The position numbers and the translations under genes were made by a program. A stretch of DNA of 55,316 nt from a virus (Duplodnaviria > Caudoviricetes), in IMG/VR virus record IMGVR_UViG_3300046788_000307, positions 1 to 55,316 of that record. One strand, given 5' to 3'. Shown piece after piece: positions 18,954 to 55,316 of the stretch (positions within the stretch are counted from its first letter, which is position 1; every line of letters starts with the position of its first letter). The notes beneath the pieces are model-generated. The model was not told the DNA's origin, ran no database searches, and worked only from the letters and a program-made list of their open reading frames with translations.

Positions 18954-18983
18954 CTTATCGCATAAGTTAGCCACGATTGTCAA
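18954..18983 (-). promoter_or_regulatory. Promoter TTGACA-N15-TG-C-GATAAG
   Basis: Same architecture as 8485-8514. Confidence 0.6.
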
Positions 18984-24719: not shown

Positions 24720-24753
24720 GCAATCATCCTAAGTGCCCATTGGAGTTCTACTG

Positions 24754-31186: not shown

Positions 31187-32196
31187 TGCCGGATTGGGGA
31201 GATCTCGAAAACATTGGTGGCCAAGTCCTCGGCGGTGTGCCCGGCTATGTCGGATCGCAGCTATCGCAGCACGGTATGGGTGGCACGGCCGGATCGGTCC
31301 TATTTGGCGGACTAGGCAAGTCTACCAACCCCATGGATTATGGGGTTAATTCGCCGAATCAAGCGCAGATGCAGGCGATGATGGGGCAGAGTGCGGCGCA
31401 GATTGACCCGGCGCAGCAGGCGCAGTTCCGCGCGATGCAACTGGCACAGGCGCAGCAGCTACAGCGTATCGCGAGTGGCCAGCAGCAAGGTGCAGGCGAG
31501 CTCGCAGCACAGCGCCAGGTCGCCAATGCACAAGCCGCACAGCAAGCACAAGCGCGCATGGCACGAGGCGGTAACGCAGCACTTGCATATCGCCAAGCGG
31601 CTAACAATCAAGCCGGGATCGGTCTTGCGGGTGCCGGGCAAGCGCAGCAAGCGGCGCTGCAGGATCAGTCGAACGCGATGGGGCAACTCACGGGGGCACT
31701 CGGGCAAGGTCGCGGGCAAGATCTTTCGATGGCCGGCCAGAACGCGCAGTTTCAGAACGAACGTTACGGCCAGAATCTCGGCGCATTGTCGTCGAATGAC
31801 GCGCAGCGCTTGGCAGCACAGCAGGCTGCTATGGGCGCGACGCTCGGGCAGCAAGGCATCGCAGGCGGGTTGCTTAGTACAGCTGGCACTATGATGGCTG
31901 CATCAGATGAGAATCTAAAAACCGATATCACCGATGCAGACGATGAGGTTAACGAGATGCTACGCAGCATCCCGGGATCGCGTGCATATCGCTATAAAAA
32001 TGAGGCACGCCACGGCACAGGCGATCGCCTAGGAATCATGGCGCAGGATCTTACGAAAACGCCGGGCGGACGCAAGATGGTTCGTCAAACGCCTGATGGG
32101 CTTGCAGTTGACGTTGGCCAGATGGCCTCGGTTGCGATTGCAAAGGCTGCCGAGTACGAGCGCCGAATCGCTAAGCTAGAGAAGAAGGCACGCTGA
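31186..32196 (+). CDS. Gln/Ala-rich virion protein with C-terminal S74 (intramolecular chaperone) domain
   Basis: SDENLKTDI, YRYK, GIMAQDL and a terminal coiled coil. Confidence 0.8.
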   Translation: MPDWGDLENIGGQVLGGVPGYVGSQLSQHGMGGTAGSVLFGGLGKSTNPMDYGVNSPNQAQMQAMMGQSAAQIDPAQQAQFRAMQLAQAQQLQRIASGQQQGAGELAAQRQVANAQAAQQAQARMARGGNAALAYRQAANNQAGIGLAGAGQAQQAALQDQSNAMGQLTGALGQGRGQDLSMAGQNAQFQNERYGQNLGALSSNDAQRLAAQQAAMGATLGQQGIAGGLLSTAGTMMAASDENLKTDITDADDEVNEMLRSIPGSRAYRYKNEARHGTGDRLGIMAQDLTKTPGGRKMVRQTPDGLAVDVGQMASVAIAKAAEYERRIAKLEKKAR

Positions 32197-32747
32197 TGCC
32201 TGATAATTTACCGAATAGATATGCTCTAGATCCATCTACATTGGCCGGTCTAGGGTTGCTTCCTCCAGCGCCGACAACGGCACAGGAGAGATCGCAGGCA
32301 ATGGCCGAAGCACTAGCGCGGTCGCACGCATATGCCAAAGCACAGGCACAAGCGCAGGATTTGGCGCGTACGCAGAGCAGATCGCAGGCAATGGCCGAAG
32401 CGTTGGCGCGATCTCACGCATACGCCAGAGCGCAAGCACAGGCACAAGATCTTGCGCGCACGCAGATGGTAGCAGCAGCGACACATGCAGGGCTATTACC
32501 CGCCCTGCACCCTGCAATTGTATCTGCTATTCAGAATGATTTTAGACCGGCGAATGTGCCTATCCAGGCGGGACCTACGGTCCCGGACTATACGCCGCCT
32601 AGTAGCAATCCTAACGATCGGTTTAATCCGCGCCCATATCCGCCTTTGCCTATGCCGCTAGCGCCTGCGCTATCATCTCCACAAGCGACCAACGGTACTA
32701 TTCAGAATATAATTAACCAGCGCACTGGTACCCCGGTGTCGGAGTAA
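32196..32747 (+). CDS. Hypothetical protein with tandem ~30-aa repeat
   Basis: RSQAMAEALARSHAYA.AQAQAQDLARTQ x2. Confidence 0.6.
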   Translation: MPDNLPNRYALDPSTLAGLGLLPPAPTTAQERSQAMAEALARSHAYAKAQAQAQDLARTQSRSQAMAEALARSHAYARAQAQAQDLARTQMVAAATHAGLLPALHPAIVSAIQNDFRPANVPIQAGPTVPDYTPPSSNPNDRFNPRPYPPLPMPLAPALSSPQATNGTIQNIINQRTGTPVSE

Positions 32748-38871: not shown

Positions 38872-39387
38872 ATGTCTAATTTCCTCGACTTGCTTAAGCC
38901 TGTTTACGATGCCTTTGCCGGTGGGCGCTATGCGTTTGCCGTCGCACTTGGCGTGATCGCCGCAGTGGCATTGATCAAACGCTATGCTGGATCAGGTAAA
39001 TTCAGTGCCTTCGTGCACGGGGATACCGGCGGATCGCTTATGGCACTTGCAACCGCGATGGCAGGCGCGATGGCTAGCGGACTCGCCGCACCAGGTGCAC
39101 ATGTGACGTTCGCGCTCGTTAAGACAGGACTGCTCGTCGGTATCGGTGCGGCAGGTGGATTCGCTATGCTGAAAAACCTTGTCATCGAACCATTGCTCAA
39201 GCCGCTTGCGGCGAAAGCACCCGCTTGGATGCAACCTCTGTTCGCTCTTATCTTCTTTTTCTTCGATCACGGGGACAACGGTGCGGCAGCGCTTGCGACT
39301 GCACAAGCAGCCGGTGATGCCGCGGTCGCTGCAAAACCTGCCGTGGGTATCGACGCTGTTACAAGTGCGCCGACGGACGTAAAGTAG
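38872..39387 (+). CDS. Multi-pass membrane protein (holin candidate)
   Basis: About four hydrophobic segments; AGGAG SD. Confidence 0.55.
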   Translation: MSNFLDLLKPVYDAFAGGRYAFAVALGVIAAVALIKRYAGSGKFSAFVHGDTGGSLMALATAMAGAMASGLAAPGAHVTFALVKTGLLVGIGAAGGFAMLKNLVIEPLLKPLAAKAPAWMQPLFALIFFFFDHGDNGAAALATAQAAGDAAVAAKPAVGIDAVTSAPTDVK

Positions 39388-39722
39388 TGCGAGTGTTCGT
39401 TAGTGCGGTGCTAGTTGTCAGCTTACTAGGACCTGCATATGCGGACCCCCCTGTCAACGTGCATCTGCGCACACCGTCCACGGTCCATACTGACGGGGGC
39501 GTAGACTTACGGCTGCCGCCAGGTTACTTCCTCGATGAGACCAGTAGGCGCGATCTAGACGCGGAAGTGAAACGCCTGCAAACCCAGGAAATTAGGCTCG
39601 CTGCGGAAAACGCATCGCTCGTGAAAGCTACCCAAGGATGGCAACCCGGGTGGTACACGCTTGCGATTTCTTTTGCTGGTGGGCTTGCATTAGGATGGTA
39701 CGTCTGTGATAGACTGAAATGA
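39387..39722 (+). CDS. Spanin-like protein (signal, coiled coil, C-terminal TM)
   Basis: Architecture and lysis-module position. Confidence 0.45.
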   Translation: MRVFVSAVLVVSLLGPAYADPPVNVHLRTPSTVHTDGGVDLRLPPGYFLDETSRRDLDAEVKRLQTQEIRLAAENASLVKATQGWQPGWYTLAISFAGGLALGWYVCDRLK

Positions 39723-39743
39723 TCGCGCAATCCGCGCGTATGG

Positions 39744-40994
39744 TTGAACATGCTAAAGCTTTGCCGCAGTTGTAATTTGCAAAAGCCCCTTGGCTTGTTT
39801 TGGCAGGATAAAGCACGACCCGATGGGCACAAGGCGCAGTGTAAGGATTGTAGCCGCGCACGGGATCAACGAGAGGCACCCGAACGGGACACGATCCGAG
39901 ACATGCCTCTCCCACGTGCTATAGAGGAAACGCTACCGCCCCTCATCGAGCACCGACTTAAAACCAGGTGCACATCCCTAGAGGCGCAGGTTAGAGATCT
40001 GCTCGGGCAACTCGATAATGCGCAGCGCGTTGCTGAGTTTCGCCGTGAAGCCAGCGAGCACAAAGTAGATCCGATCGAACCGCGCGAGCGCAACCGCGGA
40101 CCATTGCGCGAAGCGACGGCGCTAGCATGTGCGAGCGACTGGCATATCGAGGAGGAAGTTAAGCCGGAACAGGTTGCCGGCCGTAATCGCTACAATCTCG
40201 AGATCGCACAGCGGCGCATGGAGCGCTTTTTCGAAGCTGTGCGATTCGCCATCCGATTCAACCGGCAGATTTTCAAAATCCGCGATCTCGTGCTCTGGAT
40301 CGGTGGTGATATCATCACCAACTATCTACGCGAGGAGGATGTTGAAGCGAATCTGCTAGCGCCACCTAGAGCAATAGCGTTCGCCGTCGCACACCTCGCT
40401 GCGGGTATCCGCCATCTGCTAGAGGATAACGATCTCGAGCGTATTGTCATTCCCTGTAACGACGGCAACCACGGGCGACTTGATGGCAAGGGAAAAATCA
40501 AGCACCGTACGCGCGCGGATAATTCCCTTGAGTGGCTCATGTACACGATGCTGGCACGTGAATTTGCCAGCGAAACTCGCATCCAGTTCCAAATCGCTGC
40601 CGGCGAGATGCTCTACCTAGATATTTACGGGCGCACCGTGCGGTTCGTGCATGGTGACATCGTGCACTATGCCGGTGGTGTCGGCGGTGTGACTATCCCT
40701 CTCTATAAGGCCGTTTCCCGATGGGATACAGTGCGGCGCGCTGATCTCACAGTGCTCGGACATTTTCACCAGTTGACATCGCTCACCGATTTGATTATTA
40801 ACGGATCCCTAATTGGCTACTCACCATATAGCCTCACAATTGGCGCGCGATTTGAACCGCCAGCACAGGCGTTCACGATCCTTGATCCGATGCGTTTCAA
40901 GTCAGTAGCGATGCCGCTATGGGTAGGTGATAGATCCGATGATCAACAAAACCAAGGGTACGAAGGAGCAGATGATGGGACTTCCGACCGATGA
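39744..40994 (+). CDS. Calcineurin-like metallophosphoesterase with N-terminal Zn finger
   Basis: SDWH, GGD, GNHGR, HGD, GHFH; CRSC...CKDC. Confidence 0.85.
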   Translation: MNMLKLCRSCNLQKPLGLFWQDKARPDGHKAQCKDCSRARDQREAPERDTIRDMPLPRAIEETLPPLIEHRLKTRCTSLEAQVRDLLGQLDNAQRVAEFRREASEHKVDPIEPRERNRGPLREATALACASDWHIEEEVKPEQVAGRNRYNLEIAQRRMERFFEAVRFAIRFNRQIFKIRDLVLWIGGDIITNYLREEDVEANLLAPPRAIAFAVAHLAAGIRHLLEDNDLERIVIPCNDGNHGRLDGKGKIKHRTRADNSLEWLMYTMLAREFASETRIQFQIAAGEMLYLDIYGRTVRFVHGDIVHYAGGVGGVTIPLYKAVSRWDTVRRADLTVLGHFHQLTSLTDLIINGSLIGYSPYSLTIGARFEPPAQAFTILDPMRFKSVAMPLWVGDRSDDQQNQGYEGADDGTSDR

Positions 40995-42623: not shown

Positions 42624-42876
42624 CGAACCCACGCTCGTCATCTGCAAGCACCCGCCCAAGATCATACCGACGCCGATCGTTTACCCCGAGTTACAGCTAG
42701 CGCGTGGGACTAAGCAGAATGTATCTCAGATCTACGAGCACCCGATGGGCACCCATTGGCTGATGCTCGCGCGACTCGAGCAACTATCCCGTAATATGGC
42801 GATAGCAGGGGCGCTCGAGATGGCCTACCGTCGCGGATTGCTGCATGAGCGGCAATACGGAGCACTCTCGCGATGA
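42610..42876 (+). CDS. Hypothetical protein
   Basis: Stop overlaps the start of the following ASx unit. Confidence 0.5.
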   Translation: MLRPSEPTLVICKHPPKIIPTPIVYPELQLARGTKQNVSQIYEHPMGTHWLMLARLEQLSRNMAIAGALEMAYRRGLLHERQYGALSR

Positions 42877-43124
42877 TGATGGTCGCTATCCTCGCCAGCC
42901 GCGCCAGCTACGCCAGCTACGCCAGCCGCGCCAGCTACGCCAGCGACGTCAGCTACGCCAGCCGCGCCAGCCGCGCCAGCCGCGCCAGCCCCGCCAGCCC
43001 CGCCAGCCCCGCCAGCCACGCCAGCCACGCCAGCCCCGCCAGCCGGCTAAGAGTCGCCACCTACGCTAACTGTGCCAGCTCCGCCAGCGACGCTAGCCGC
43101 GCCAGCCGGCTAAGAGGCGGATGA
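42873..43124 (+). CDS. ASx-repeat peptide (apparent fusion of two units), ends RLRGG
   Basis: Internal SRLR-VATY junction; followed by stub MMVAPS* (43121-43141). Confidence 0.75.
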   Translation: MMMVAILASRASYASYASRASYASDVSYASRASRASRASPASPASPASHASHASPASRLRVATYANCASSASDASRASRLRGG

Positions 43125-43679
43125 TGGTCGCCCCGTCGTAAGCGCGCGGCGAATACCGAGCCGCGCCAGTGCGTGCAATCCGATCCCGACGGCATCCGCC
43201 GCATCATGGTTTAAAGATTGCGCAATCATGCGCTCTGCGTCATTAAGACGCGACCAGATGCGTACCCCGCGCGGCGATGCCCAATATTTGCCTTTGCGGG
43301 TATCTTTTGAAAGCTGTCCAGTCCATTCGGATGGCAAATATGTGCGAATCTCGATTCGCTCGCCTCGGCTCTCTGCAAAAACCGCCAACGCGCAGCTGAC
43401 GGCACCATCAACCGCAGCCATGGCGATCAGATCGTTAGGATCGACGCGAGATCGCGGATAGACCTGTGGCCACTCGTAAGCCACCGTCGATACTTTGGCA
43501 CTATATTTAGTTACCCACGTGACGATGATACTAGCTGCTGCAAGAGCTCGCTGTCCGTGTGTCATACTGACGCTCGCGGGAATTGAGAGATGTGCGGCAG
43601 CTATAAGCAATCCGTCACGAAACAGCGCGACACCAGGCGAATTGATACCAGGGTCGACAGCAAGTAAATCAGACATCAC
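43110..43679 (-). CDS. RuvC-like Holliday junction resolvase
   Basis: LLAVDPG, AYEWPQ, PSEW, HDAADAVGIG. Confidence 0.8.
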   Translation of the reverse strand: MMSDLLAVDPGINSPGVALFRDGLLIAAAHLSIPASVSMTHGQRALAAASIIVTWVTKYSAKVSTVAYEWPQVYPRSRVDPNDLIAMAAVDGAVSCALAVFAESRGERIEIRTYLPSEWTGQLSKDTRKGKYWASPRGVRIWSRLNDAERMIAQSLNHDAADAVGIGLHALARLGIRRALTTGRPSSAS

Positions 43680-43888
43680 CCGCCTCTTAGTCGGCTGGCG
43701 TAGTTGTAGTAACTGGCGTAGCTGGCGCGGCTAGCGTAGCTGGCGCGGCTAGCGTAGCTGGCGTGGCTGGCGAGGCTGGCGAGGCTGGCGCGCCAAGCGT
43801 AGCTGGCGTGGCTGGCATCGCTAGTGCGGCTGGCGTGGCTGGCGTAGCTGGCGCAGCTGGCGTAGTTGGCTAGGGTAGCGACCATCAT
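43676..43888 (-). CDS. ASx-repeat peptide B5, ends RLRGG
   Basis: 70 aa; stop overlaps the resolvase start. Confidence 0.75.
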   Translation of the reverse strand: MMVATLANYASCASYASHASRTSDASHASYAWRASLASLASHASYASRASYASRASYASYYNYASRLRGG

Positions 43889-43895
43889 CCGCCTC

Positions 43896-44180
43896 TTAGC
43901 CGCTCCTTAACCGGCTGGCATAGTTGGCGTAGTTGGCGTAGCTGGCGTAGCTGGCGTGGCTGGCGTAGTTGTAGTAACTGGCGTAGCCGGTGTAGCTGGC
44001 GGAGCTGGCGTGGCTGGCGCAGCTGGCGTAGCTGGCGTAGCTGGCGCGGCTGGCGTCGCTGATGTTGCTGGCGTCGCTGGCGTAGCTGGCGTAGCTGGCG
44101 GGGCTGGCGGGGCTGGCGCAGCTGGCGCAGCTGGCGCAGCTGGCGCAGCTGGCGTAGCTGGCGAGGATAGCGACCATCAT
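43896..44180 (-). CDS. ASx-repeat peptide B4, ends RLRSG
   Basis: 94 aa; tail DNA duplicated. Confidence 0.75.
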   Translation of the reverse strand: MMVAILASYASCASCASCASCASPASPASYASYASDASNISDASRASYASYASCASHASSASYTGYASYYNYASHASYASYANYANYASRLRSG

Positions 44181-44434
44181 CCGCCACTTAGCCAGCTGAC
44201 GTAGCTGACGTAGCTGGCGTCGCTGGCGTAGCTGGCGTGGATAGCGTGGATAGCGTGGATAGCGTCGCTGGCGCGGCTGGCGTAGCGGGCGTAGGTGGCG
44301 GAGCTAGCGTCGCTGGCGTCGCTGGCGTCGCTGGCGTCGCTGGCGTAGCTGGCGCATCTGGCGCAGCTGGCGCAGCTGGCATAGCTGGCGCAGCTGGCAT
44401 AGCTGGCGTAGCCGGCTAGGATAGCGACCATCAT
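44177..44434 (-). CDS. ASx-repeat peptide B3, ends WLSGG
   Basis: 85 aa; contains (AIH)3. Confidence 0.75.
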   Translation of the reverse strand: MMVAILAGYASYASCASYASCASCARCASYASDASDASDASDASSATYARYASRASDAIHAIHAIHASYASDASYVSYVSWLSGG

Positions 44435-44697
44435 CCGCCTCTTAGCCGGCTGGCGCGGCTGGCGCGGCTGGCGTGGCTGGCGTCGCTGGCGTAGCTGGCG
44501 TAGTTGGCGTAGCTGGCGGGACTGGCGTAGCTGGCGTAGCTGGCGAGGCTGGCGCGGCTGGCGTCGCTGGCGTCGCTGGCGTAGCTGGCGTAGTTGGCGT
44601 AGCTGGCGGGACTGGCGTAGCTGGCGTCGCTGGCGTAGCTGGCGTCGCTAGCTAGGGTAGCGTGGCCGGCGTAGTTGGCTAGGGTAGCGACCATCAT
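44431..44697 (-). CDS. ASx-repeat peptide B2, ends RLRGG
   Basis: 88 aa; higher-order internal duplication. Confidence 0.75.
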   Translation of the reverse strand: MMVATLANYAGHATLASDASYASDASYASPASYANYASYASDASDASRASLASYASYASPASYANYASYASDASHASRASRASRLRGG

Positions 44698-44915
44698 CCG
44701 CCTCTTAGCCGGCTGGCATCGCTGGTGTAGTTAGCGTCGCTGGCGTAGCTGGCGTAGCTGGCGCGGCTGGCGTAGCTGGCGTAGCTGACGTAGCTGACGT
44801 AGCTGGCATCGCTGGTGTAGTTAGCGTCGCTGGCGTAGCTGGCGTAGCTGGCGTAGCTAGCGTAGCTGGCGTAGCTGGCGTAGCTGACGCGGCTGGCTAG
44901 GGTAGCGATCAGCAT
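44694..44915 (-). CDS. ASx-repeat peptide B1, ends RLRGG
   Basis: MLIATLASRVSYAS...; start overlaps the end of the vWA gene. Confidence 0.75.
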   Translation of the reverse strand: MLIATLASRVSYASYASYASYASYASYASDANYTSDASYVSYVSYASYASRASYASYASDANYTSDASRLRGG

Positions 44916-46018
44916 ACATCCTGCAAACGAATCGCCTGGCACCCATCGGGCAATGAGCGATCTGTAGTACAGAGCACAATCATATTAGAAGGGGTTACTT
45001 CGGGCCACGGAGTATCGCCGTCGGTAATCACCACTAGCATATCGCATTTTCCAACCTGCGATATCCCCTGGCGCAAATCAGTCCCGCCACCTCCGCGCCA
45101 TGTGCGGGGCATTCGGGTGCTGCGACCTGTAACCGCAGCATCACACGCTACCACCGTCATGCGCGTAGTAATCGATCGCATCGTTGCGAGAGCTCCCATC
45201 ACTACATCCCCTTCGCTGCCCATAGATCCCGAGGTGTCGACGACAACTCCGATATGCGGCACCGTCCGCGCGGTGCTCGGACGAATCGGCTGATTATCCC
45301 GCTGCCTACGTGCTGGACGCGCTGACCATACTTGGCGACCGCGTAGTGTGGCTGTCGCACCGAGCACCGCACGACGCAATAGCGTGCGCCACGGAATCAC
45401 TACCGGAACAGCTCGCGCATCCGCCCAGACTTGCACACCTGCCGGTACTGACCCGCGGCCATGCTGTGCTACATGCGCGCGCACATCTTGTGCCACAGCG
45501 TCCCGAAGAGTTTCAGCATTACCCGGCTCCACCCCACCGTCAGATATTTCCCAGTCGTGGGGGCAGCCAGCACCACTCCCACCTGCACACACTCCAGCGG
45601 ACGGCATTGCTACAGTATGTTCGCTATAATAATCCTCAGCCGTAAGCCCCTCTTGCCATCCTAGTTTCTTGGGGTGCACGCAATCAGGTGGTAATTCGCC
45701 GTCAAGTGCATCATCATTGATCTCGGCATCGCCACAACAATTCCACGCCCGGGCATCCGCCGATATCGCTTTTGCACGCTCGAAATGATCACGGAGTAAA
45801 TGCTCCACCTCATGCGCTGCAATTACTGCCCCGCGGTGCGCAGGATCTAATCCTGCTAGCCACTCGGGATCGTAGTATAAATGCCATCGCGCATCAACCG
45901 CGATCGTGCCCAAACCCGGTTTAGCGATCGGGGTTAATGCTGCAATCGCCCGCGCGTAGTAGGGACGGATCAGTCGCGCGGAAAGCAATGCTGATGCAAT
46001 TAGTTCAGAATCCATCAT
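44909..46018 (-). CDS. HExxH metallopeptidase-like plus vWA domain protein (DUF2201-type)
   Basis: AHEVEHLLRDH, WN...D.EIND; MIDAS DTSGS, GGGGTD, TDGDTPWP. Confidence 0.88.
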   Translation of the reverse strand: MMDSELIASALLSARLIRPYYARAIAALTPIAKPGLGTIAVDARWHLYYDPEWLAGLDPAHRGAVIAAHEVEHLLRDHFERAKAISADARAWNCCGDAEINDDALDGELPPDCVHPKKLGWQEGLTAEDYYSEHTVAMPSAGVCAGGSGAGCPHDWEISDGGVEPGNAETLRDAVAQDVRAHVAQHGRGSVPAGVQVWADARAVPVVIPWRTLLRRAVLGATATLRGRQVWSARPARRQRDNQPIRPSTARTVPHIGVVVDTSGSMGSEGDVVMGALATMRSITTRMTVVACDAAVTGRSTRMPRTWRGGGGTDLRQGISQVGKCDMLVVITDGDTPWPEVTPSNMIVLCTTDRSLPDGCQAIRLQDVC

Positions 46019-46182
46019 TTACTCCTTAGCCGGCTGGCGTGGCTGGCGAGGCTGGCGTGGCTGGCGAGGCTGGCGTGGCTGGCGTAGTTGGCGTAGCTGG
46101 CGTCGCTGGCGTCGCTGGCGTAGCTGGCGTAGCTGGCGCAGCTGGCGTAGCTGGCGCAGCTGGCGAGGGTAGCGACCATCAT
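46015..46182 (-). CDS. ASx-repeat peptide between MoxR and vWA genes, ends RLRSK
   Basis: Hand translation, 55 aa; ATGA overlap with both neighbours. Confidence 0.75.
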   Translation of the reverse strand: MMVATLASCASYASCASYASYASDASDASYANYASHASLASHASLASHASRLRSK

Positions 46183-47195
46183 CTTGCCGATCGAATCCGA
46201 TTAGCCAGATCTTGCGCTTCATCCGGCACTTCGTCAGTAGCATCGATCAGCACTTTCGCCGCACCTAGCGAGCAGTCCGGGCGCGTGCTGGCGAGCAGTT
46301 TCCATGCTCGCGAGATACGTCCAGAGCGATCTTTGTGCTGAGACAAAGCCGCAGCTGCGACGGACAATAAAGCCGCTGACACCTGGTCACCACGTTTAGG
46401 CAGCTTTGCGGTGCCCGCTAGGAGCGCCTCAGGATCAGGTAGATCACGCGCCACATGATAAGCATGCCATTCACTAGCCGCGGCATCGCCTACGCAGCCG
46501 GCCACAAGCATCCTGGCATCCGCCATCTCGCCGAACGCCATCGCCCTAATCGCTGCCGACCAACTACGCGGACTAGGCCAAGCGCGGCTATCCGTCGCGG
46601 GGGTACGCACACACAACGCAGCCGGGGATCGTGCCACCCACGCACAAATGCTTGCAGCCGCACTAGCTTCACCTGCTGTCAAATTAGATCCCCACCCGCT
46701 AAGTGTGCCGGAAATCCATGTAGATGGATCGACGGTCCAGTCGAGGTGCGCCCAGCGGTTTGACGTTGCCGCGCTGAGATCCCCACCATCCGCAGCAGCA
46801 TCGATAGGGTTCGCAGCTGCCGCAATGCGCACGCCCCTAATGGACAATTCGCCTACCGCGCGCTCATTTACTACCCGTAGCAATGCTGCCTGCACAGATG
46901 GCGGTGCGCAGGAGAGCTCGTCCAAGATCAGCCAAGTAGGTTTGCCGGCATCAATCGATTGCCGCAACCGACGCGCCCACGGGGGCGCGATATTGATCAC
47001 GGTATCGCCGCGGGGCAAGAGATACCCGCCGACATCGATCGGATCCAACTGGCTGCCGATCAGCACCTCTGCATGCGCTCCCTCTTGATGCGCAAGTGCA
47101 AGCAGCGCAGCAGTCTTGCCCGTACCGGGCTGCCCCCATAGAAGCACGGGCACATCCGCACGCAAGTAGGCACGCAAGAGTGAGAGCGCTTTCAT
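46179..47195 (-). CDS. MoxR-family AAA+ ATPase
   Basis: GQPGTGKT, ILDELS, AAANP, NRWAH, PSPRSW. Confidence 0.9.
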   Translation of the reverse strand: MKALSLLRAYLRADVPVLLWGQPGTGKTAALLALAHQEGAHAEVLIGSQLDPIDVGGYLLPRGDTVINIAPPWARRLRQSIDAGKPTWLILDELSCAPPSVQAALLRVVNERAVGELSIRGVRIAAAANPIDAAADGGDLSAATSNRWAHLDWTVDPSTWISGTLSGWGSNLTAGEASAAASICAWVARSPAALCVRTPATDSRAWPSPRSWSAAIRAMAFGEMADARMLVAGCVGDAAASEWHAYHVARDLPDPEALLAGTAKLPKRGDQVSAALLSVAAAALSQHKDRSGRISRAWKLLASTRPDCSLGAAKVLIDATDEVPDEAQDLANRIRSAR

Positions 47196-47521
47196 TACTT
47201 CGTGCTCCTAATTTCATCCGCATCAGCCGAACGCGCGAGGGGCTTCAGATCGCGCGCGCAAGGCGTGGCAATCAAGACGCCATCCTTGTGCAGTACCGTG
47301 CCATCCGGTAGGCGCCAATGCCGTGCCGAAATAGCGACCATTTCCTTAGCCGATGTTGCGAGGGCGATATCACCGATCAAGGTCTTACCGGAGTTAACTG
47401 CCTCAAGATACACGCAATCCTTGATTGTAATGAGATCGCCCTCAACGCTGGTTATCGTGCCACCGATCAGCCACGACGGGGGGGTGAAAAAAACGTAGGT
47501 CTGTCCGACTTTGAAATTCAT
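47195..47521 (-). CDS. Small beta-barrel (Sm/SH3-like) protein, unknown function
   Basis: FKVGQTYVF...GTITSVEGDLITIKDC pattern; TAATG-coupled to MoxR; fold is inferred. Confidence 0.55.
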   Translation of the reverse strand: MNFKVGQTYVFFTPPSWLIGGTITSVEGDLITIKDCVYLEAVNSGKTLIGDIALATSAKEMVAISARHWRLPDGTVLHKDGVLIATPCARDLKPLARSADADEIRSTK

Positions 47522-47553
47522 TTGATTTGGTCCTGTTGGTTTCGAGCAATTCA

Positions 47554-47583
47554 TCTATCGCATGGAACGCGATTACAAGTCAA
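47554..47583 (-). promoter_or_regulatory. Promoter TTGACT-N15-TG-C-GATAGA
   Basis: Same spacing as the two promoters of the isolated ASx units. Confidence 0.55.
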
Positions 47584-47768
47584 CAAGAAAACGTCAGATG
47601 GCAAGGCGGGCTGGCATAGCAAGCAAAACTGACATCACTAGCGCGGCTGGCATGGCTGGCGTAGCTGGAAAAGCTAGCGTAGCTAGCGTAGTTGGCGTAG
47701 CCGGCGTGGCTGGCGTGGCTGGCGCGGCTGGCGCAGCTGACGTAACTGACGAGGGTAGCGACCATCAT
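47580..47768 (-). CDS. ASx-repeat peptide with divergent tail
   Basis: MMVATLVSYVSCASRAS...; ATGA-coupled to the MTase. Confidence 0.7.
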   Translation of the reverse strand: MMVATLVSYVSCASRASHASHAGYANYASYASFSSYASHASRASDVSFACYASPPCHLTFSC

Positions 47769-48253
47769 TTGCCACGCTGCCATAACGTGGCGATATCACA
47801 TAGATTTAATGGGATATCGGTGTATGGTCGCCAATGGATGATCGAGCTGCAAAAATTATTTGTGGAAGGCTCAATGCCCGGTGGCGGATCGAATCGGACG
47901 CGCCTGTGCAACTGCCATAAATCAAGAACTAAATCGCCATGCGGCGCGACAATTTCATGCCACCATTTGGTGCTGTGATCATGCTTTGCGAGCACAAGCG
48001 CCCACTTGGTACGTCCAGCCTCGATTTCGGCAGTTAGTTTACGCATCCAGGGCAGGGGGTTGCTGTAAGGATGGTTTAGAAATACGCTCCGCCCCCACGG
48101 GTATATAAGGCCATCGTCGCCTTTTTCGAGTGAATATGCTGCCAGCGCACGCACTGATGATCTCGGATTAGAACACGGATCAAGGTCCACAAACGGCAAC
48201 CGGGCAGTTAGCCAAGCGGGTGTGCAGTAGGAATCGGTCGCTTTGGTTCCCAT
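47765..48253 (-). CDS. Phage Dam-like N6-adenine methyltransferase
   Basis: YCTP, DLDPCS, DDGL..PW, VFLNHPYS (NPPY variant), STKWW, RVRF. Confidence 0.78.
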   Translation of the reverse strand: MGTKATDSYCTPAWLTARLPFVDLDPCSNPRSSVRALAAYSLEKGDDGLIYPWGRSVFLNHPYSNPLPWMRKLTAEIEAGRTKWALVLAKHDHSTKWWHEIVAPHGDLVLDLWQLHRRVRFDPPPGIEPSTNNFCSSIIHWRPYTDIPLNLCDIATLWQRGK

Positions 48254-50661
48254 GGGATTAACCTCCCCGTGGCATCGAAAACAGGTTCGGCACCTTTATA
48301 CAGCCGGCGCATCAAGCAAGGCAGCGCTTCCACAGCGGCATGCATATCAGGACATGCGATACGCAAGGTCTCTTCCATGATTTCGCTACACCGCGTAGCA
48401 GCCTCGGCAGCGATCGATTCCGGATGCTCAAGTACAACTTCATCGTGGGCAAACAGAATCGCGCGCGAACTCAATAGTGGGGATGGCCCGCCATCCCAGC
48501 GTGAGACATATCTGGTGAAACTCTGTACGCGATGCGTACTATCGTAACATTCACGGGTGATTGCCATAAGGGCATTCTTTGCCGCATCGGCTAGTAATGC
48601 TTGAAAATACCCATTGGCAATCGCGTTGCCAGAGTTGATGGGATCGCCTTGCTCGTCAACCTTCCCCTGTTTAAAACCGCGCAAACGCTTGCTCATATGC
48701 TGTGTGACAGGTTGCCCCGCTTCATCAATCCGCTTGACATAGTCAAAATAGGCAGCATTTTCAGGCCACTGTTTGAGCCATTGCTCTTTTAGCTGCGTCG
48801 CACACTCGATGCATTTCAGACATGTTGGGGGCAACGGGCGATGGTGCCATTCGGTAACCTTGACAGTGCCGCAGTGTTGCGCAGCACCCATCAAAATACA
48901 AAAGCGCAAACCTTTATAGATGGTGCCATCGGGTGCAACCGTAGTATCTGCTTCTTTACGTTTTTGCAGGACGAGTTTAGCGGCGCCCATCCGCCCAGGG
49001 AAACCAAAGTTGGCTGCTTTGAATGCTTGTCGGAGATTTCCGATACGCTTGTCACCGGCTTTTCTACGCTTGACAGCATCCTCGTACGAGATGCCGAGCA
49101 TGCTTGCAGCACCCGCGAGGTGTGCATCTAGTCCGCGGTTTAGTGCCTCAGCAAGTCGCGAGGCACCGACAATCCAAAGGCAAGATTGTGCGTGTGTGAC
49201 GAGCTCGCCGCCCCGATAATCCTCACTGCTAAACAGATACCCGGGGCGCGCAGTGATGCACTCGCGTATACCACCCTCACGGGGCAGCAGTTGGATTACC
49301 CCATCGTACGAAGTGCGCCCCGTCTCAACTAGCGTATTGAATCGCAGATTGAGCGGCACTTCATAATAAGGCCCGGGACATGTGCATGCACCTTTGCGTC
49401 CCTCGCGTTGCGCCGGGCATCCTTCGGCATGTCCGGCAACTGGCGGACGAGCGGTGCGGAAATACGGAATGTACGTGTGGGGGATTTTCTTCCCGTCCTC
49501 GTATTCTGCAAAACTGCGCAGAAATTCGTCACCCGACTCAGTCAGCACGTCACGTCCGATGCCGATTTCACCGGATGGGGTGCGTGGTACATTTGTGAGC
49601 AGCAATCCGCTACCGTCGCACTGTTTACAGTTAATTTTCGTGCGCCCCTGCGTCACTTCGCTGGGGACCTTACCGCCACCCGCACAATTTGGACACCCAT
49701 CCTTGGCGCCATATGCGATAGCAACTAGGCGCTTGAGTTTGCTCTCATCCACACTACCCGTACTGCGGATGATGCCGGCATCAATAAAAGGTTGCTCTTG
49801 CCCCGCATGCTCAGATTCATATTTCGCCTGCAAAGCATCCACATCTTGCTGATCGATGTGGAACCCCCACGCTCCACCTAGTGCGCCACAAAGCTGCACG
49901 TATGTCTGCCTCGAGAGCTCATGGCTGTTTTGCCGGCGCTCGCGGGCACGGCAATACGCATCCCCGCCCGGCGGAAGTCCACAGCGCCGGCAACCGAGAT
50001 CGCTGCCAGGCCCGCCCGATGGCCACACGTGTGGCGCGCAGCTGGGCAGGTGCCCCCCTTGTGCGAGCGCCACCTCAAGTGTATTCACCGCATCGTCAAC
50101 CGGGTACGTGCGTGCCTCAAGTGGCCATTGTTCGATAGGCAAATGCTCGAGCAGTGCATAGGACAAACGAAATCTATCGTTCGCCTTAGCGTTATCGCGA
50201 CCTAGTACCTGCTGCACCACAGCATCTAGGGAATAGCGCCCCTTCATGGATTTGCCGGTAATCGGATCGCTCCCTAGATGCCCGCGCGCGATAGCGTGGA
50301 GTGCTTCCCAAACCTGCACGCAGATAACGCGACCGTCGACTTGTCCTAGTGCAGCGGTGCGCGCGGGATCATACATCGCCAGAATTGCCGGCATGAGATC
50401 TTCGCCACGTAATCCCGCGCGCACCGCCATGCACAGCACATCGTAAGCGATGTTCGCGCCGATTAGGGTGAGTGCGGGTGCATTTAGGGTGTGTTGGAAC
50501 ATCCCTTCGGCATCAGTTGCACTTACGAGATGTTTCTGCTGCGCCCACGCTGCACTGCCGCACACAACGGGCGGTGCGACGAGGCCCGGCTGCACCAGAT
50601 GGGTCTCGAGATCGAATGCCACCCCGTTATGCAGGAGTGCGTCGAGGCGCTCGGACTTCAC
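48208..50661 (-). CDS. polA: Family A DNA polymerase with 3'-5' exonuclease
   Basis: FDLET, NIAYD, TGRTS, DYRGGEL, RQAFKAANFG, HDE. Confidence 0.92.
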   Translation of the reverse strand: MKSERLDALLHNGVAFDLETHLVQPGLVAPPVVCGSAAWAQQKHLVSATDAEGMFQHTLNAPALTLIGANIAYDVLCMAVRAGLRGEDLMPAILAMYDPARTAALGQVDGRVICVQVWEALHAIARGHLGSDPITGKSMKGRYSLDAVVQQVLGRDNAKANDRFRLSYALLEHLPIEQWPLEARTYPVDDAVNTLEVALAQGGHLPSCAPHVWPSGGPGSDLGCRRCGLPPGGDAYCRARERRQNSHELSRQTYVQLCGALGGAWGFHIDQQDVDALQAKYESEHAGQEQPFIDAGIIRSTGSVDESKLKRLVAIAYGAKDGCPNCAGGGKVPSEVTQGRTKINCKQCDGSGLLLTNVPRTPSGEIGIGRDVLTESGDEFLRSFAEYEDGKKIPHTYIPYFRTARPPVAGHAEGCPAQREGRKGACTCPGPYYEVPLNLRFNTLVETGRTSYDGVIQLLPREGGIRECITARPGYLFSSEDYRGGELVTHAQSCLWIVGASRLAEALNRGLDAHLAGAASMLGISYEDAVKRRKAGDKRIGNLRQAFKAANFGFPGRMGAAKLVLQKRKEADTTVAPDGTIYKGLRFCILMGAAQHCGTVKVTEWHHRPLPPTCLKCIECATQLKEQWLKQWPENAAYFDYVKRIDEAGQPVTQHMSKRLRGFKQGKVDEQGDPINSGNAIANGYFQALLADAAKNALMAITRECYDSTHRVQSFTRYVSRWDGGPSPLLSSRAILFAHDEVVLEHPESIAAEAATRCSEIMEETLRIACPDMHAAVEALPCLMRRLYKGAEPVFDATGRLIPWEPKRPIPTAHPLG

Positions 50662-51446
50662 GTAAACAGCTCCCTATATCGAGTCAAAAATGCACGCTCA
50701 GCATCCGCCGGTGGCATGCAGCGAAACCACGCACCAAGCGGCGATACCTCTTGGTGCCACGGGCGATGGAGATACATCTCAGGATCAGCCATCAAATACG
50801 AAATCTCATCAATGAGGATCCGGTTATCAATATTCTTGATGATCTCGTGCGCTTTTGGTGTCCACTGCAGATGGAACGCCTCGGCGATTGCCTGCTCGAT
50901 TTTACTTTCGACCCGACGGAACTCAGCCATTTCCGGCTGATGTTTGAGTGGGCGGATCATGTCCCCGATATACGCCTCGGCACTATCGTGCATCAATCCC
51001 AATTGTGCCAAGTTGCGCACTTGCTCGGGGGATCTGCCGGCATTGCGCGCATGCACCTCAACAAATTTCGAGACCAGGATGCAGTGCTCGGCGACGCTGT
51101 AGAAGATCCGAGATTGCCCGCCGTAGCGACAAGTCATCGCTAGGCCATGTGCTACATCGGCGAGCTCGATATCCGCCGCGCGGGGATTGAGCGGATGGAA
51201 TCGCTTGCCGCTAAACGTTTGCATCCACCCGCGGTCGTCACCGGCATCCGGCTCAATCATGCGGGCTTCGTGGTCGGCTAGTGAGGGGATCGATTCCAAG
51301 CGAGTGCGTATTCCGTCCACTTCAACAATTGGCGAAGGAAATCGCATGTACTGCATAGTCGGCCGTGTCTCGAGCAGATGTGCGGCACCAAGATTCACGC
51401 CGGCACCAATTAGCGCGATAGCCACAATGACTACGAGGAGAATCAT
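50658..51446 (-). CDS. HD-domain (YfbR-like) nucleotidase
   Basis: MQTFSG, AHGLA..CRYGG, YSVAEH, LMHDSAEAYIGD..RPLK. Confidence 0.85.
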   Translation of the reverse strand: MILLVVIVAIALIGAGVNLGAAHLLETRPTMQYMRFPSPIVEVDGIRTRLESIPSLADHEARMIEPDAGDDRGWMQTFSGKRFHPLNPRAADIELADVAHGLAMTCRYGGQSRIFYSVAEHCILVSKFVEVHARNAGRSPEQVRNLAQLGLMHDSAEAYIGDMIRPLKHQPEMAEFRRVESKIEQAIAEAFHLQWTPKAHEIIKNIDNRILIDEISYLMADPEMYLHRPWHQEVSPLGAWFRCMPPADAERAFLTRYRELFT

Positions 51447-51898
51447 GCTCGCCTCATTTTCTGCATGCGTTGCGCCAGATGGTAGATTTTCCACCATAGC
51501 CATGTGCCTTGATGGGGGATTAACTGCCCGTCGAGTAACTGCACGCCATGAAATCCCCACTCACGCACCTTTGGTCCCATGAAGCACAGCGTAACGGCAC
51601 CGCCCGGGGAGACTTCGCAAATCGTGTGTCTATCAGTTGCCCGGATCCAATTCCACCAGCGGTTGCGTAGGATGATCCCACGTTCACCGCGATGCTCGCG
51701 ATACCAACCGCGTAAGATTAGGCTAAAAAATGAAACAGGATGGTCATGTAGATATGGTTCGGGATCGGGCTTATTGATCCAGTGCACGCACAGTGCGAAC
51801 CATGGCGTTTTCAGCAAATGTAGACGGGTGATATATCCCGAATCTGTAAAAGTCCAGCGCCATAGACACCATCCGGTGCCGGATTTATATGTCCGCAT
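51443..51898 (-). CDS. Cupin-like phage protein
   Basis: LHDHP.SF.SLILRG.Y.E, H.I, GPKVREWGF. Confidence 0.65.
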   Translation of the reverse strand: MRTYKSGTGWCLWRWTFTDSGYITRLHLLKTPWFALCVHWINKPDPEPYLHDHPVSFFSLILRGWYREHRGERGIILRNRWWNWIRATDRHTICEVSPGGAVTLCFMGPKVREWGFHGVQLLDGQLIPHQGTWLWWKIYHLAQRMQKMRRA

Positions 51899-51901
51899 TT
51901 A

Positions 51902-52054
51902 TCACGCTACCAGTTGGGCAATCTTGATAAGTTTTTGGGTCTCTTTGCGCACAATATCTATGAGTTCAGACCATGTGAACTCTTGTAGATCACGCATATC
52001 TAGTCCGAGGGCATCATGTAATTGACGCTGGTACTCTGACAGAACCTTTTTCAT
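51902..52054 (-). CDS. Small hypothetical protein
   Basis: GGAG SD; MKKVLSEYQRQLHDALG... (50 aa). Confidence 0.55.
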   Translation of the reverse strand: MKKVLSEYQRQLHDALGLDMRDLQEFTWSELIDIVRKETQKLIKIAQLVA

Positions 52055-52886: not shown

Positions 52887-54854
52887 TTAGCTCTCGTCAT
52901 CATCTTCGGTATCATCAAGTTTTGCGAAGACTTCGGCAGCGAAACCTCCGAGGATCTGCTGCTGCATAAGCGTGGTGCCCTCAACATAGTACGCGGCTCG
53001 CAACGCATTCCGCACCCGTCTACGGAGCTCGCGGGTGTGCAGATAGAACTCCGCTTTCACCACATCGGCTGGTTGGCCGCTACGTCTCAAGCGGCCGGCC
53101 GATTGCTCCCACATATCCACGCCCCCCGGAAGATTCGCATACAGCTGCTCGCAAAATTTAAACTGCAACCCATTGGTGCCAGTTCCGTGCGCGTCCATGG
53201 ATACGAGGATGCTGCGGCTACCATCTTCCTGCAGCAACGCTTCGCGGGCATCCTTGCCCGCACCATAGAACGGCAGCTTGTGCTTTTGCGTCAAACGGCG
53301 CCCGAAAGGGCCGTACTGGAACCACACTATTCCGCGGTGCTCGCGTGCCCATGCCGCAGCATCGTCGACTAGAAAATCATCGAGCCACACATCATCCGCT
53401 TCGGGCTTAACCTGATCTCTAATTTCAGCCCACGGTAGCCACATCTGTGATGCCCATTCGGGAAGCCCACAATCGCTAGGGCGCTGGCCATAGGCACGTT
53501 GCGCGGCACGGATAGCGAGCTCGGGCGAATCTAAGTGCTCCTCGCGTCGCTTTAGCTTTTGCCGTAGCTCTTTGAAAAATTCGCGCCTGCGTTCTAGCCA
53601 TGTCAGCACAAGCGGCTCGTCACGCGGAAACTCATTGTGGGGGAAGATCCATCGGTAGTGGAAACCGCACGCGATCGTGCACGCACATTCAACCGCCTGT
53701 AGTGCCGTAACGAGCTCCTCACCATCCGGGCGGATAAATGCTAGCGCCTGTGTGATTAGGTCTTGGAGCTTTTTGGGGATAGGTGGTGCTTCGCGCTCAA
53801 GTATCTCGAGCTTGCAGTCCGCACTAGATGTGGATGTGGTAACCACACCAAGTGTTTCGCACTGTCGCCGACGCAATCCGGTGTATAGCGATTCGCCTGG
53901 CTTGCAACATCCGCTAGCGATCAGCCCGTCAAACAACGCACCGGGATCAGCGGGATTTTGTGACGGGTCGATCGCAGTGGACCAGCTGGCTACAACTTCT
54001 TTACTGCGAGGCAACGGAGATCCTGCGCCTAGTGCCCATCCCGCAAGGTGCGCATGGTTTTTTATCGAGTTACTCGTAATCGAACCGGACCACACCGCGA
54101 CGCGTGTACCTGGGTTCTCTTTAACGAACCGCTCGACACGTGAAACGGTGGAAGAGTCACGGTTACGAAGTTTCTGACATTCGTCCGAGACAATCGCGTG
54201 CGGGCGCACACGTCGCATCCAATCCGTTGCCTCGAGACGCTGCAGCCGTGAATAAGGCATCACTTGTAGTTTCGGGACACCTGGACGCAAGCGATCATCA
54301 TTAGGGCGCCCCTGGATTACCATGCTAGGCATCTGCCAGTGCTGGCCTAGGTAATCGTAATCCTCGACGAGTTGCCCGGCGAGTTTAGGGGGTACAAGTA
54401 GCACCACGAGGACGGATTCTGGATCCGTGCCGGCGGGCATGTGATGCAAGAAAGCAAATGGTGCGAGCAGATCCAATAATGTCTTGCCGTGTCCAACTCC
54501 GATCATCCCGACAAGCCCGCCGCAGATTGCGAGCTCGCGTAATGCCCATGCTTGGATGTGGCGTAATTGCGTGATGCACCCCTCGGCAGCATGTCGATCG
54601 GGATCGATCTGCGCACATTTGCATGCTTGCCGTGTAGCCGTGTAGCGTGCGGTCTGTTGTGCGATAAGTGCATCAGCACGTGCGGTGCCATCTAGTTCCG
54701 GTGCCCGCCGCGGCAAGGCTAGGATCCGTGTTAGTTCTTCCGAGCGTCCGACGGGCGGACGAGATCCCCAAGCTTCACGTGGTGTGATGATCTGACTTTT
54801 GTATGGCGCTACGCCAGGCATCGCGACGATTGTGGTTAGATCTAAAGGCACCAT
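52887..54854 (-). CDS. Superfamily 2 helicase
   Basis: GVGHGKT, SDECQ, WSGS, GTNGLQ, EQSAGRLRRSGQ. Confidence 0.85.
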   Translation of the reverse strand: MVPLDLTTIVAMPGVAPYKSQIITPREAWGSRPPVGRSEELTRILALPRRAPELDGTARADALIAQQTARYTATRQACKCAQIDPDRHAAEGCITQLRHIQAWALRELAICGGLVGMIGVGHGKTLLDLLAPFAFLHHMPAGTDPESVLVVLLVPPKLAGQLVEDYDYLGQHWQMPSMVIQGRPNDDRLRPGVPKLQVMPYSRLQRLEATDWMRRVRPHAIVSDECQKLRNRDSSTVSRVERFVKENPGTRVAVWSGSITSNSIKNHAHLAGWALGAGSPLPRSKEVVASWSTAIDPSQNPADPGALFDGLIASGCCKPGESLYTGLRRRQCETLGVVTTSTSSADCKLEILEREAPPIPKKLQDLITQALAFIRPDGEELVTALQAVECACTIACGFHYRWIFPHNEFPRDEPLVLTWLERRREFFKELRQKLKRREEHLDSPELAIRAAQRAYGQRPSDCGLPEWASQMWLPWAEIRDQVKPEADDVWLDDFLVDDAAAWAREHRGIVWFQYGPFGRRLTQKHKLPFYGAGKDAREALLQEDGSRSILVSMDAHGTGTNGLQFKFCEQLYANLPGGVDMWEQSAGRLRRSGQPADVVKAEFYLHTRELRRRVRNALRAAYYVEGTTLMQQQILGGFAAEVFAKLDDTEDDDES

Positions 54855-55114
54855 TAACCTCTAAGGCGACTGGCGTAGCTGGCGTAATTGGAGTAATTGA
54901 CGCAACTGGCGATGCTCGCGTAGTGGGCATAGCTGGCATGACTAGCATAGTTGATATGCCCGCCATAGCCGTAACTACCATAGTTGGCGTAGTTGGCGTA
55001 GCTGGCGCGGCTGGCGTCGCTAACGAGGCTGGCGTTGCTGGCGCGGCTGGCGATGCTAGTGTAGCTGCCGTGGCTGGCGCGGCTGGCGTAGCTGGCGAGG
55101 GTAGCGACCATCAT
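54854..55114 (-). CDS. ASx-repeat peptide with synonymous drift, ends RLRG
   Basis: 86 aa; TAATG-coupled to the helicase. Confidence 0.8.
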   Translation of the reverse strand: MMVATLASYASRASHGSYTSIASRASNASLVSDASRASYANYANYGSYGYGGHINYASHASYAHYASIASCVNYSNYASYASRLRG

Positions 55115-55316
55115 AATCCGCTCCTTAGCCGGCTGGCGCGGCTGGCGTCGCTGGCATAGCTAGCGCAGCTGGCGAAGCTGGCGTCGCTGGCGCGGCTGGC
55201 GTAGCTGGCGTAGCTGGCGTAGCTGGCGTAGTTGTCGTAGCTGACGAGGCTGCCGTAGTTGGCGCGGCTGGCGTAGCTGGCGCGGCTGGCGTGGCCGGCG
55301 TAGTTGGCTAGGGTCG
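55111..55316 (-). CDS. ASx-repeat peptide (5' truncated), ends RLRSGL
   Basis: ..TLANYAGHASRAS...SRLRSGL*; stop overlaps the next ATG. Confidence 0.7.
   Translation of the reverse strand, partial: TLANYAGHASRASYASRANYGSLVSYDNYASYASYASYASRASDASFASCASYASDASRASRLRSGL

Follow-up and report, generated by a model that had tools for sequence, protein, structure and literature searches.

A family of Ala-Ser-x reading frames, candidate disordered mini-proteins built from a coding minisatellite, in a tailed-phage genome

The Ala-Ser-x units and their setting

The IMG/VR virus record IMGVR_UViG_3300046788_000307 (Duplodnaviria; Caudoviricetes), 55,316 bp in length, classed as linear and with a CheckV completeness estimate of 94%, was analysed in full and is referred to here as the window. 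It carries a family of 16 short open reading frames (ORFs), hereafter units u1 to u16, in which a short leader is followed by triplets of alanine, serine and a variable residue x (A-S-x). Allowing at most two mismatches, the 21-nucleotide (nt) leader ATGATGGTCGCTAYCCTAGCC occurs in 15 copies, 13 on the minus strand and two on the plus strand, and in none of 100 shuffles; an ORF in the A-S-x frame begins at all 15, and the sixteenth unit (55111-55316) has lost its leader to the end of the window. Translation from the ATG of each unit gives MMVA(T/I)LA, then the A-S-x triplets, and mostly an SRLRGG-like end, the products being Ala/Ser-rich and 55-119 amino acids (aa) long. Tandem Repeats Finder places period-9 arrays at 1-733, 8542-8718, 18606-18918, 42893-43044, 43694-44897, 46033-46165, 47646-47748 and 54981-55308, and both ends of the contig fall within arrays. 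Together the units take up 3,657 nt, or 6.6% of the genome. A preliminary description of this DNA, made from its letters alone, had reported about 16 such genes occupying roughly 3.5 kb, and both figures hold, as do the five units that it placed at 43676-44915, where translation gives exactly five ORFs. It had also called the family genome-wide, which here means eight places in one contig.

Pfam and PHROG scans of 30 ORFs reveal the gene content of a tailed phage, and soil and rhizosphere metagenome runs contain its sequence. The plus strand encodes a primase-helicase, a large terminase with an intein, a portal, a major head protein, tail genes and a GH25 lysin. On the minus strand lies a replication block with a PD-(D/E)XK nuclease, DnaN, a helicase, an HD phosphatase, a family-A DNA polymerase, a Dam-like methyltransferase, a MoxR-like ATPase, a DUF2201/vWA protein and a RuvC-like resolvase.

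At the left end of the window, four units stand in tandem on the minus strand. The 3' part of u1 (1-133) is cut by the window start, with an exact leader at 113-133 and a translation that begins MMVATLANYAGHASRAS; u2 (130-360; 76 aa, tail SRLRGG) overlaps it through ATGA, and is preceded by u3 (357-581; 74 aa, tail SRLRSGR) and u4 (578-754; 58 aa, leader variant MTVATLA), the first unit downstream of DnaN (1017-2114, minus strand). Two units are solitary. The first, u5 (8524-8736, plus strand; 70 aa), lies in a long intergenic region after the primase-helicase gene, with a promoter-like TTGACA-N20-TAAGA in front of it (8485-8515, plus strand; one CACCGATT in the spacer) and a body-less remnant behind it (8733-8765, plus strand) that consists of leader and tail only, MTVASWLSGG. 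The second, u6 (18588-18947, minus strand; 119 aa), is antisense to the flanking plus-strand structural genes. It too has a promoter-like TTGACA-N20-TAAGA (18953-18983, minus strand), and it is followed by a remnant leader ORF (18553-18591, minus strand) that runs into a hairpin with a 9-bp stem and a T/A-rich run (18546-18568, minus strand), which may serve as a terminator.

The remaining units lie around the replication genes. On the plus strand, u7 (42876-43124; 82 aa) consists of two units fused in frame (internal SRLR-VAT), overlaps orf104 through ATGA, and is followed by a seven-codon remnant leader (43121-43141, plus strand). On the minus strand, next to the RuvC-like gene (43110-43679), five units form a run: u8 (43676-43888; 70 aa), whose tail gives the Shine-Dalgarno sequence and the overlapping start of the RuvC-like gene; u9 (43896-44180; 94 aa), with a TAA stop and then a second Shine-Dalgarno before u8; u10 (44177-44434; 85 aa, tail SWLSGG); u11 (44431-44697; 88 aa); and u12 (44694-44915; 73 aa, leader variant MLIATLA), whose start overlaps the end of the vWA/DUF2201 gene (44909-46018). 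Between the MoxR-like gene, with which it shares an ATGA overlap, and the vWA gene, for which its tail supplies AAGGAG and ATGATG, lies u13 (46015-46182; 55 aa). The degenerate u14 (47580-47768; 62 aa) has no tail and shares an ATGA overlap with the Dam-like methyltransferase gene (47765-48253); u15 (54854-55114; 86 aa) shares a TAATG overlap with the helicase gene (52887-54854), and u16 (55111-55316), whose leader is cut by the window end, stands next to it. Units u8 to u16 and the helicase, methyltransferase and vWA genes are all on the minus strand. The ATGA, TGATG and TAATG overlaps that had been listed to the next unit and to the RuvC, vWA, helicase, MoxR and Dam-like genes are present as described.

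Leader and tail as a translational junction

The tail had been presented as a fixed, SRLRxG-like peptide end, a description that does not stand. SRLRGG is found in six of the 14 complete units, and the others end in SRLRSGR, SRLGGK, SRLRNG, SRLRSG, SWLSGG, SRLRSK, SRLRG or, in the case of u14, no tail at all. The common form, AGC CGG CTA AGA GGC GGA TGA, includes AAGAGG, and its variants have AAGGAG, TAGGAGG or TTAGAGG; the codon changes (AGA GGC to AGG AGC, or to GGA GGC) alter residues (Gly to Ser, Arg to Gly, Gly to Lys or Asn) yet keep a purine-rich Shine-Dalgarno sequence. The stop codon of the tail overlaps the ATGATG of the following ORF. In 13 of the 14 complete units the stop comes 2-4 codons past SRL or SWL, overlapping or abutting the next start, and the sole junction to have lost its stop/start is that inside u7, where the loss is in frame. 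The same junction stands ahead of the RuvC-like, vWA and helicase genes. Because the variants keep the Shine-Dalgarno and not the residues, and because the stop overlaps the next start, leader and tail together can be read as a translational re-initiation junction of about 40 nt, in which the supposedly fixed tail appears to give the next ORF its ribosome-binding site, along with a stop that overlaps its start, and is not a peptide signal.

The units have the anatomy of translated genes, with a start codon, a Shine-Dalgarno or stop-start overlap and an in-frame stop, and are predicted from this anatomy to be translated. Those behind another unit have AAGAGG or AAGGAG 3-6 nt ahead of the first ATG, and those behind ordinary genes (u7, u12, u13 and u14) have no good Shine-Dalgarno and overlap the stop codon of that gene. 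The promoter-like TTGACA-N20-TAAGA gives two matches in the window, against 0.02 expected, and these lie directly upstream of u5 and u6, the two solitary units.

Two other readings of the junction and frame were rejected, and RNA folding was unremarkable (z = -1.24 for the junction hairpin and -1.63 for the whole u6 RNA). RLRGG, with which only six of the 14 complete units end, resembles the end of ubiquitin; in the variants it is the Shine-Dalgarno and not the Gly-Gly that is kept. An antisense Gly-x-Ala frame, collagen-like in pattern, lacks a conserved start and meets a TAG stop in most leaders.

Repeat composition and array turnover

The 302 well-formed 9-mers of the arrays follow the pattern GCC AGC ..C, with seven positions 90-98% constant. 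Variation is concentrated 5-20 fold at two of the nine positions, namely position 7 (T/C/G/A in 145/108/44/5) and position 8 (A/G/T/C in 193/75/19/15), which makes every third residue the variable one. This residue is Y in 115 cases, R in 56, D in 44, H in 32, C in 17, P in 11, L in 9 and F in 8, others being rarer. Its codon is CGC, TGC, CAC or TAC in 202 of the 302, a series linked by transitions at one CpG, and is of the form NNC in 91%. The GC content of the arrays is 67%, against about 56%, and GAC makes up 31% of the Asp codons in 39 other ORFs of the window. Between the closest paralogues (u1/u3, u2/u4, u3/u16 and u6/u13) there are differences at the NN positions as well as gains or losses of whole 9-mers, and exact stretches of up to 65 nt are common to units at different loci, a pattern of array turnover.

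A conserved N-terminus ahead of a variable body, together with the NNC form of the x codons, invites comparison with a diversifying peptide library, either of precursors of ribosomally synthesized and post-translationally modified peptides (RiPPs), with a leader and a variable core, or of a codon set like that of diversity-generating retroelements (DGRs). RiPP leader peptides have roughly 20 or more residues; the conserved N-terminus of the units has only seven, and the C-terminal "signal" is a Shine-Dalgarno sequence. Searches of the record for the reverse transcriptase family RVT_1 (PF00078), Radical_SAM and YcaO gave no matches, with positive controls in 3, 14 and 5 of 14 genomes, respectively, so that the record has no reverse transcriptase, radical-SAM or YcaO gene by which a library could be produced or modified. 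Other RiPP enzyme classes, lanthipeptide synthetases for instance, were not searched for by family, but none appeared when the 30 ORFs were scanned against Pfam and PHROGs. In addition, position 4 of the 9-mer is A with 97% constancy, though adenine-directed mutagenesis would strike there, and positions 7 and 8 vary among all bases. The library in this strict sense is thus largely refuted, and we regard it as very improbable. For the decoy, precursor or self-assembly roles suggested in the preliminary description nothing was found in support, and AlphaFold2 predicts no fold for the unit modelled, u6, with a predicted local distance difference test (pLDDT) score of 46.

Absence from relatives and position at extra genes

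Four viral records, found by a DNA polymerase scan at 79, 46, 40 and 47% identity, served as relatives. No A-S-x ORFs or period-9 arrays are present at the examined loci of the four, and the array pattern is found in none of their whole records; the preliminary description had looked to relatives for conservation of the peptide pattern, and none of the four has it. One relative (L001), collinear with the window over the stretch that runs from protease to lysin, is without DnaN, orf119, MoxR, vWA and orf104, and whole-record searches found MoxR, vWA and DnaN in none of the four relatives. Of the 16 units, 14 lie at three sites that hold additional genes in the window but not in collinear L001. 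The nuclease-helicase interval holds DnaN with u4-u1 and u16-u15; the Dam-RuvC interval holds u14, orf119, MoxR, u13, vWA and u12-u8; and the convergence of RuvC and lysin holds orf104 and u7. The unit junction motif, which stands upstream of the starts at all unit-unit junctions and of RuvC, vWA and helicase, is likewise absent from all four relatives. A block formed by orf119, the MoxR-like AAA ATPase and the DUF2201 metallopeptidase/vWA gene (44909-47554, minus strand) is missing from all four as well, with each of its genes bracketed by units.

Searches beyond these relatives agree. The exact leader was found in no stretch of the viral contigs scanned, and in nine metagenome and four genome stretches, none of the 13 with a repeat after the leader; with no repeat following, these matches inside other ORFs are attributable to chance. 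The array pattern, scanned for in viral contigs, gave 47 stretches, mostly simple uniform repeats in other ORFs, with leader and tail absent from all of them, and searches of PHROGs with the unit family returned nothing below E = 0.02. The family is lineage-specific by these comparisons, and probably young. Its supposed status as a system not yet described survives in part, for no such units were found in the literature searched, which left supplements outside its scope, but a related motif exists as the methyltransferase linker treated below.

Such a distribution would also be expected of a neutral or selfish coding minisatellite, whose cassettes would persist and multiply solely because a built-in start, stop and Shine-Dalgarno render them harmless in operons, whose peptides, whether translated or not, would have no selected function, and which may give homology patches for gene gain and loss. 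The absence from all four relatives fits this explanation, as do the 14 of 16 units at lineage-specific insert sites, the lack of synonymous divergence and a codon use foreign to the genome, the degenerate u14 and the two remnants without a body (8733-8765 and 43121-43141), and the lack of a fold or family for the units. Pure drift, however, does not predict the 5-20 fold concentration of variation at two of nine positions, and neither the promoter-like sites of the two solitary copies nor the retention of the tripeptide motif at the protein level in another viral family speaks for mere passengers. We hold this explanation, the main rival of the reading favoured below, to be a plausible one of fairly low probability.

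That the arrays or the unit structure are artefacts of short-read metagenome assembly is suggested by the position of both contig ends within arrays, by two other array-bearing viral contigs that also break in their arrays, and by a 1.2-kb array whose copy number rests on this one assembly. Against this, the order of triplets is unit-specific, the longest exact stretch between units is 65 nt, and the junctions are precisely in frame with unique flanking genes. Moreover, three sequencing runs from three studies contain 55-67% of the sampled words of 43400-46300, a region of which only about 51% is non-array, although one of these runs may be the source sample. An assembly artefact therefore seems most improbable.

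An Ala-Ser-x linker in viral methyltransferases

When 1.8 billion representative proteins were searched by phmmer with u9, four matched at E below 0.001. One of these, P0002, has about 23 A-S-x triplets, with x = Y, R, C, D or H, ahead of an N6_N4 DNA methyltransferase domain, and its methyltransferase part has 19 homologues. In all 12 homologues fetched, the methyltransferase is separated from a conserved N-terminal domain, about 250 aa long, by a stretch with Ser at every third residue; 11 of the 12 have at least eight triplets, order and length differ in each, and Ser is invariant at five consecutive third positions in the 12-sequence alignment. The members (P0002, P0005-P0021) are viral proteins of 520-570 aa, and their N-terminal domain has no Pfam match in the three members scanned. 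The full architecture of N-terminal domain, linker and methyltransferase was found in no isolated phage of the phage collection. Two members whose alignment is 87% identical differ by a 42-residue insertion or deletion and several x changes in the array, with nearly all other differences outside it. AlphaFold2 with an alignment predicts both domains to be folded (pLDDT up to 96) and the linker not to be (23-28).

The codons of these arrays differ from one virus to another. A member in the IMG/VR record G005 (loci L013 and L050), whose contig breaks in the array, uses GCC AGC NNC. At four further viral loci (L067-L070) the codons are GCC AGC NNC/T (locus GC 42%), GCA AGC NNC (50%), GCA AGT NNT (28%), and, in the fourth, GCG AGT NNT and then GCT TCG NNN within one array (GC 42%); L067 and G005 thus use the same GCC AGC NNC as the window. 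Since the peptide pattern is kept while the codons change, including a switch of serine codon family, the motif is selected as protein in this family, in which it is translated, hypervariable and predicted to be disordered. Codons are uniform within each genome and the peptide is kept across genomes, so the uniform, atypical codons would reflect concerted evolution and not a DNA motif. The claim that A-S-x is a hypervariable motif of translated protein is thereby borne out in real proteins of other viruses.

Linker and units have in common the 9-nt repeat and a tripeptide period in which Ser is fixed, Ala mostly so, and the third residue free. The linker differs in being internal to an enzyme of 520-570 aa, whereas the units are 16 free-standing ORFs, each with its own start, stop and Shine-Dalgarno tail. 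A further 39.8-kb viral contig (G007; L025 and L065, at 1-273 and 39172-39754) breaks in a 9-nt array of about 0.9 kb, which encodes (A-[S/R/L]-[D/A])n in frame in a large ORF and in which the middle codon varies too.

A DNA-level role of the arrays

The uniformity of the repeat could also mean that the arrays act as DNA, with Chi-like GCTGGCG sites that tame the RecBCD of the host or promote recombination, and with ORF packaging that only prevents harm to expression. The constant block of the 9-mer, read on the opposite strand, is exactly GCTGGCG, both variable bases lying outside the heptamer, and the arrays hold 228 copies, 195 on the plus and 33 on the minus strand. The octamer GCTGGCGC is the Chi of Pseudomonas syringae (PMC5959072), of which GCTGGCG makes up the first seven bases, and GCTGGCG is also seven eighths of a candidate enterobacterial Chi variant (PMC8022716). 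Wobble constancy and rare codons fit a constraint at the nucleotide level, and strand-annealing or Gam-like families were not recognised among the 30 ORFs scanned against Pfam and PHROGs.

Other observations do not fit. At the eighth base, 64% of copies have T and only 25% have C, and the full octamer GCTGGCGC is present in 52 of 243 heptamers, with P. syringae Chi itself perhaps not that of the host. Outside the arrays there are 8 and 7 copies, against 5.7 and 5.4 expected per strand, which is neither enrichment nor bias, and the loci of the four relatives (L001-L004) have no excess. The orientation bias within the arrays (195 against 33) largely follows from gene orientation. A 7-mer match noticed post hoc carries little weight, because the heptamer lies within the commonest octamer of Escherichia coli (10.1101/2021.07.08.451572). 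Furthermore, the A-S-x arrays of other viruses keep the peptide and change the DNA, and the promoter-like sites are left unexplained. The heptamer is presumably complementary as well to a conserved part of 16S rRNA close to its 5' end, a match that would show how easily 7-mers find partners. We therefore rate a role of the arrays as DNA improbable.

The phages LLS, P1 and MD8 enrich Chi in one orientation (PMC12315714), and the window resembles them in its many G-rich, Chi-like copies, mostly in one orientation. Their copies are dispersed in ordinary genes, about one in every 1.9 kb, and correspond to the established Chi of a known host (PMC12315714), whereas the motif of the window forms a tandem 9-bp array in a backbone that is not enriched.

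Comparison with other repeated phage elements

Several described elements have parts of the unit design. The start-associated sequences (SAS) of Cluster K mycobacteriophages and their extended form (ESAS) are conserved, asymmetric motifs, mostly in one orientation, with a Shine-Dalgarno-like core, directly upstream of many starts, and their function is not known (PMC3203893). As described there, the SAS is a 13-bp non-coding sequence conserved across the whole cluster (PMC3203893), whereas the unit junction of about 40 nt brackets a translated-type repeat and is absent from relatives. The PeSL cassettes of T4-type phages are repeated short cassettes with expression signals that flank variable genes, and modular shuffling has been proposed for them (PMC2839356; PMC4122927). 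The units likewise flank DnaN, orf119, MoxR, vWA and orf104, all of them missing from relatives. PeSLs are promoter-terminator stem-loops and not ORFs (PMC2839356; PMC4122927), and no recombination of one unit with another was observed.

The moron, a concept from lambdoid phages, is an extra expression unit of deviant composition, and morons are single genes of varied kinds. The units share with them the deviant composition and the position between genes that are adjacent in a relative, but form a 16-member repeat family.

Other features of the record

The long intergenic region after the primase-helicase gene, in which u5 lies, holds further repeats. The motif CACCGATT occurs 11 times in the window, against 1.8 expected, with nine copies on both strands within 8092-8223 (cluster span 8085-8225) and a tenth (8500-8507) inside the spacer of the u5 promoter-like site; the cluster resembles one of iterons or operators, such as an origin or regulatory region may contain. 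A motif of about 22 nt, gaaaagaaatctagcttacaata, is present twice, about 55 nt apart, at 8246-8325, and may represent paired promoters or operators.

Elsewhere, the large terminase gene (11156-13738, plus strand) has Hint/intein domains at about residues 485-803. A probable tail fibre ORF (24733-26004, plus strand) contains tandem repeats of 27, 45 and 99 nt at 24973-25238 that encode collagen-like Gly-X-Y triplets, and the ORF at 32196-32747 contains a 90-nt tandem repeat in two copies (32289-32466). The HD-phosphatase ORF (50658-51560, GTG start) overlaps a cupin-like ORF (51443-51898; a cysteine-dioxygenase PHROG) by about 118 nt, both on the minus strand, and its true start probably sits further downstream than the listed GTG. 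No tRNA genes and no Rfam matches were found in the window. Clues to the host were sought in phage databases, where the DNA polymerase gave one match, the capsid none and the lysin eight weak ones, with mixed hosts; the taxa of the DnaN atlas matches are mixed, and blastn of 45000-52000 against phages gave no match.

Proposed origin and significance of the units

We favour the reading, which we consider probable though with modest confidence, that the units are translated, disordered mini-protein cassettes built from a coding minisatellite. A 9-bp minisatellite, GCC AGC NNC, encoding Ala-Ser-x would have been their origin, and slippage and unequal recombination among 9-mers would have produced the unit-specific orders of x. 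Ribosomes would reach the ATGATG of a unit by re-initiation from the ORF in front through the stop/start overlap, by the Shine-Dalgarno in the tail of the previous unit or, for the two solitary copies, possibly from a promoter-like site of their own. The unit's own tail (CTAAGAGGCGG-ATGA) would then rebuild a Shine-Dalgarno and an overlapping start for the next ORF, and because it does so, a cassette could be tolerated in an operon without cutting off the gene downstream. The product would be an Ala/Ser-rich polypeptide with a variable third residue (Y > R > D > H > C and rarer others), probably disordered in view of the structure prediction.

A number of results weigh against this reading. 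No free-standing protein homologues were found (none in a homology search, four weak phmmer matches), the protein language model does not recognise the units (no usable match in the ESM atlas), and all known members of the family come from a single metagenomic contig with both ends inside arrays. There is no RNA run among the sequencing runs listed for the sequence, support for translation coming from the anatomy of the units. Within the window, the wobble positions of Ala and Ser are 94-97% constant, the same as the first and second positions, which gives no sign of selection on the peptide; GCC is the rarest Ala codon in the 39 other ORFs (18% of 1,915), and AGC makes up 23% of their Ser codons. 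The failure of AlphaFold2 to fold u6 alone has been mentioned. Finally, a homologue of the methyltransferase enzyme is missing from the window, tblastn with P0002 and the L013 protein matching the arrays only, and the methyltransferase linker counts as an analogy and not as demonstrated homology.

Whether the peptides matter to the phage is a separate question. If they are translated, it is about evenly balanced whether they have a selected role as flexible, sequence-tolerant polymers, by analogy with the methyltransferase linker, or are tolerated passengers. A wider proposal, which we consider rather unlikely, is that (A-S-x)n represents an unrecognised phage protein module, disordered, with a fixed Ala-Ser backbone and a re-writable third residue, in this phage mostly Tyr, Arg, Asp and His, that slippage would diversify rapidly, and used as a linker or as a battery of 16 peptides beside replication and recombination genes; such a module might scaffold a replication compartment as a multivalent sticker-spacer polymer, or act as a variable decoy directed at a host factor.

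The case carries a caution for the study of repeats, as uniform atypical codons and a 7-mer match to Chi mimicked a DNA signal until the arrays of other genomes showed the peptide to be conserved. The methyltransferase family with its hypervariable (A-S-x)n linker is a second and independent system for studies of what the motif does. The cassette design shows how repeat DNA may spread in operons without polar effects, and it marks the gene-gain sites of the lineage. If the peptides are made, the phage would devote 6.6% of its compact genome to 16 disordered mini-proteins that change fast and are translationally coupled into its replication and recombination operon, and would have a cheap source of protein diversity that needs no reverse transcriptase.

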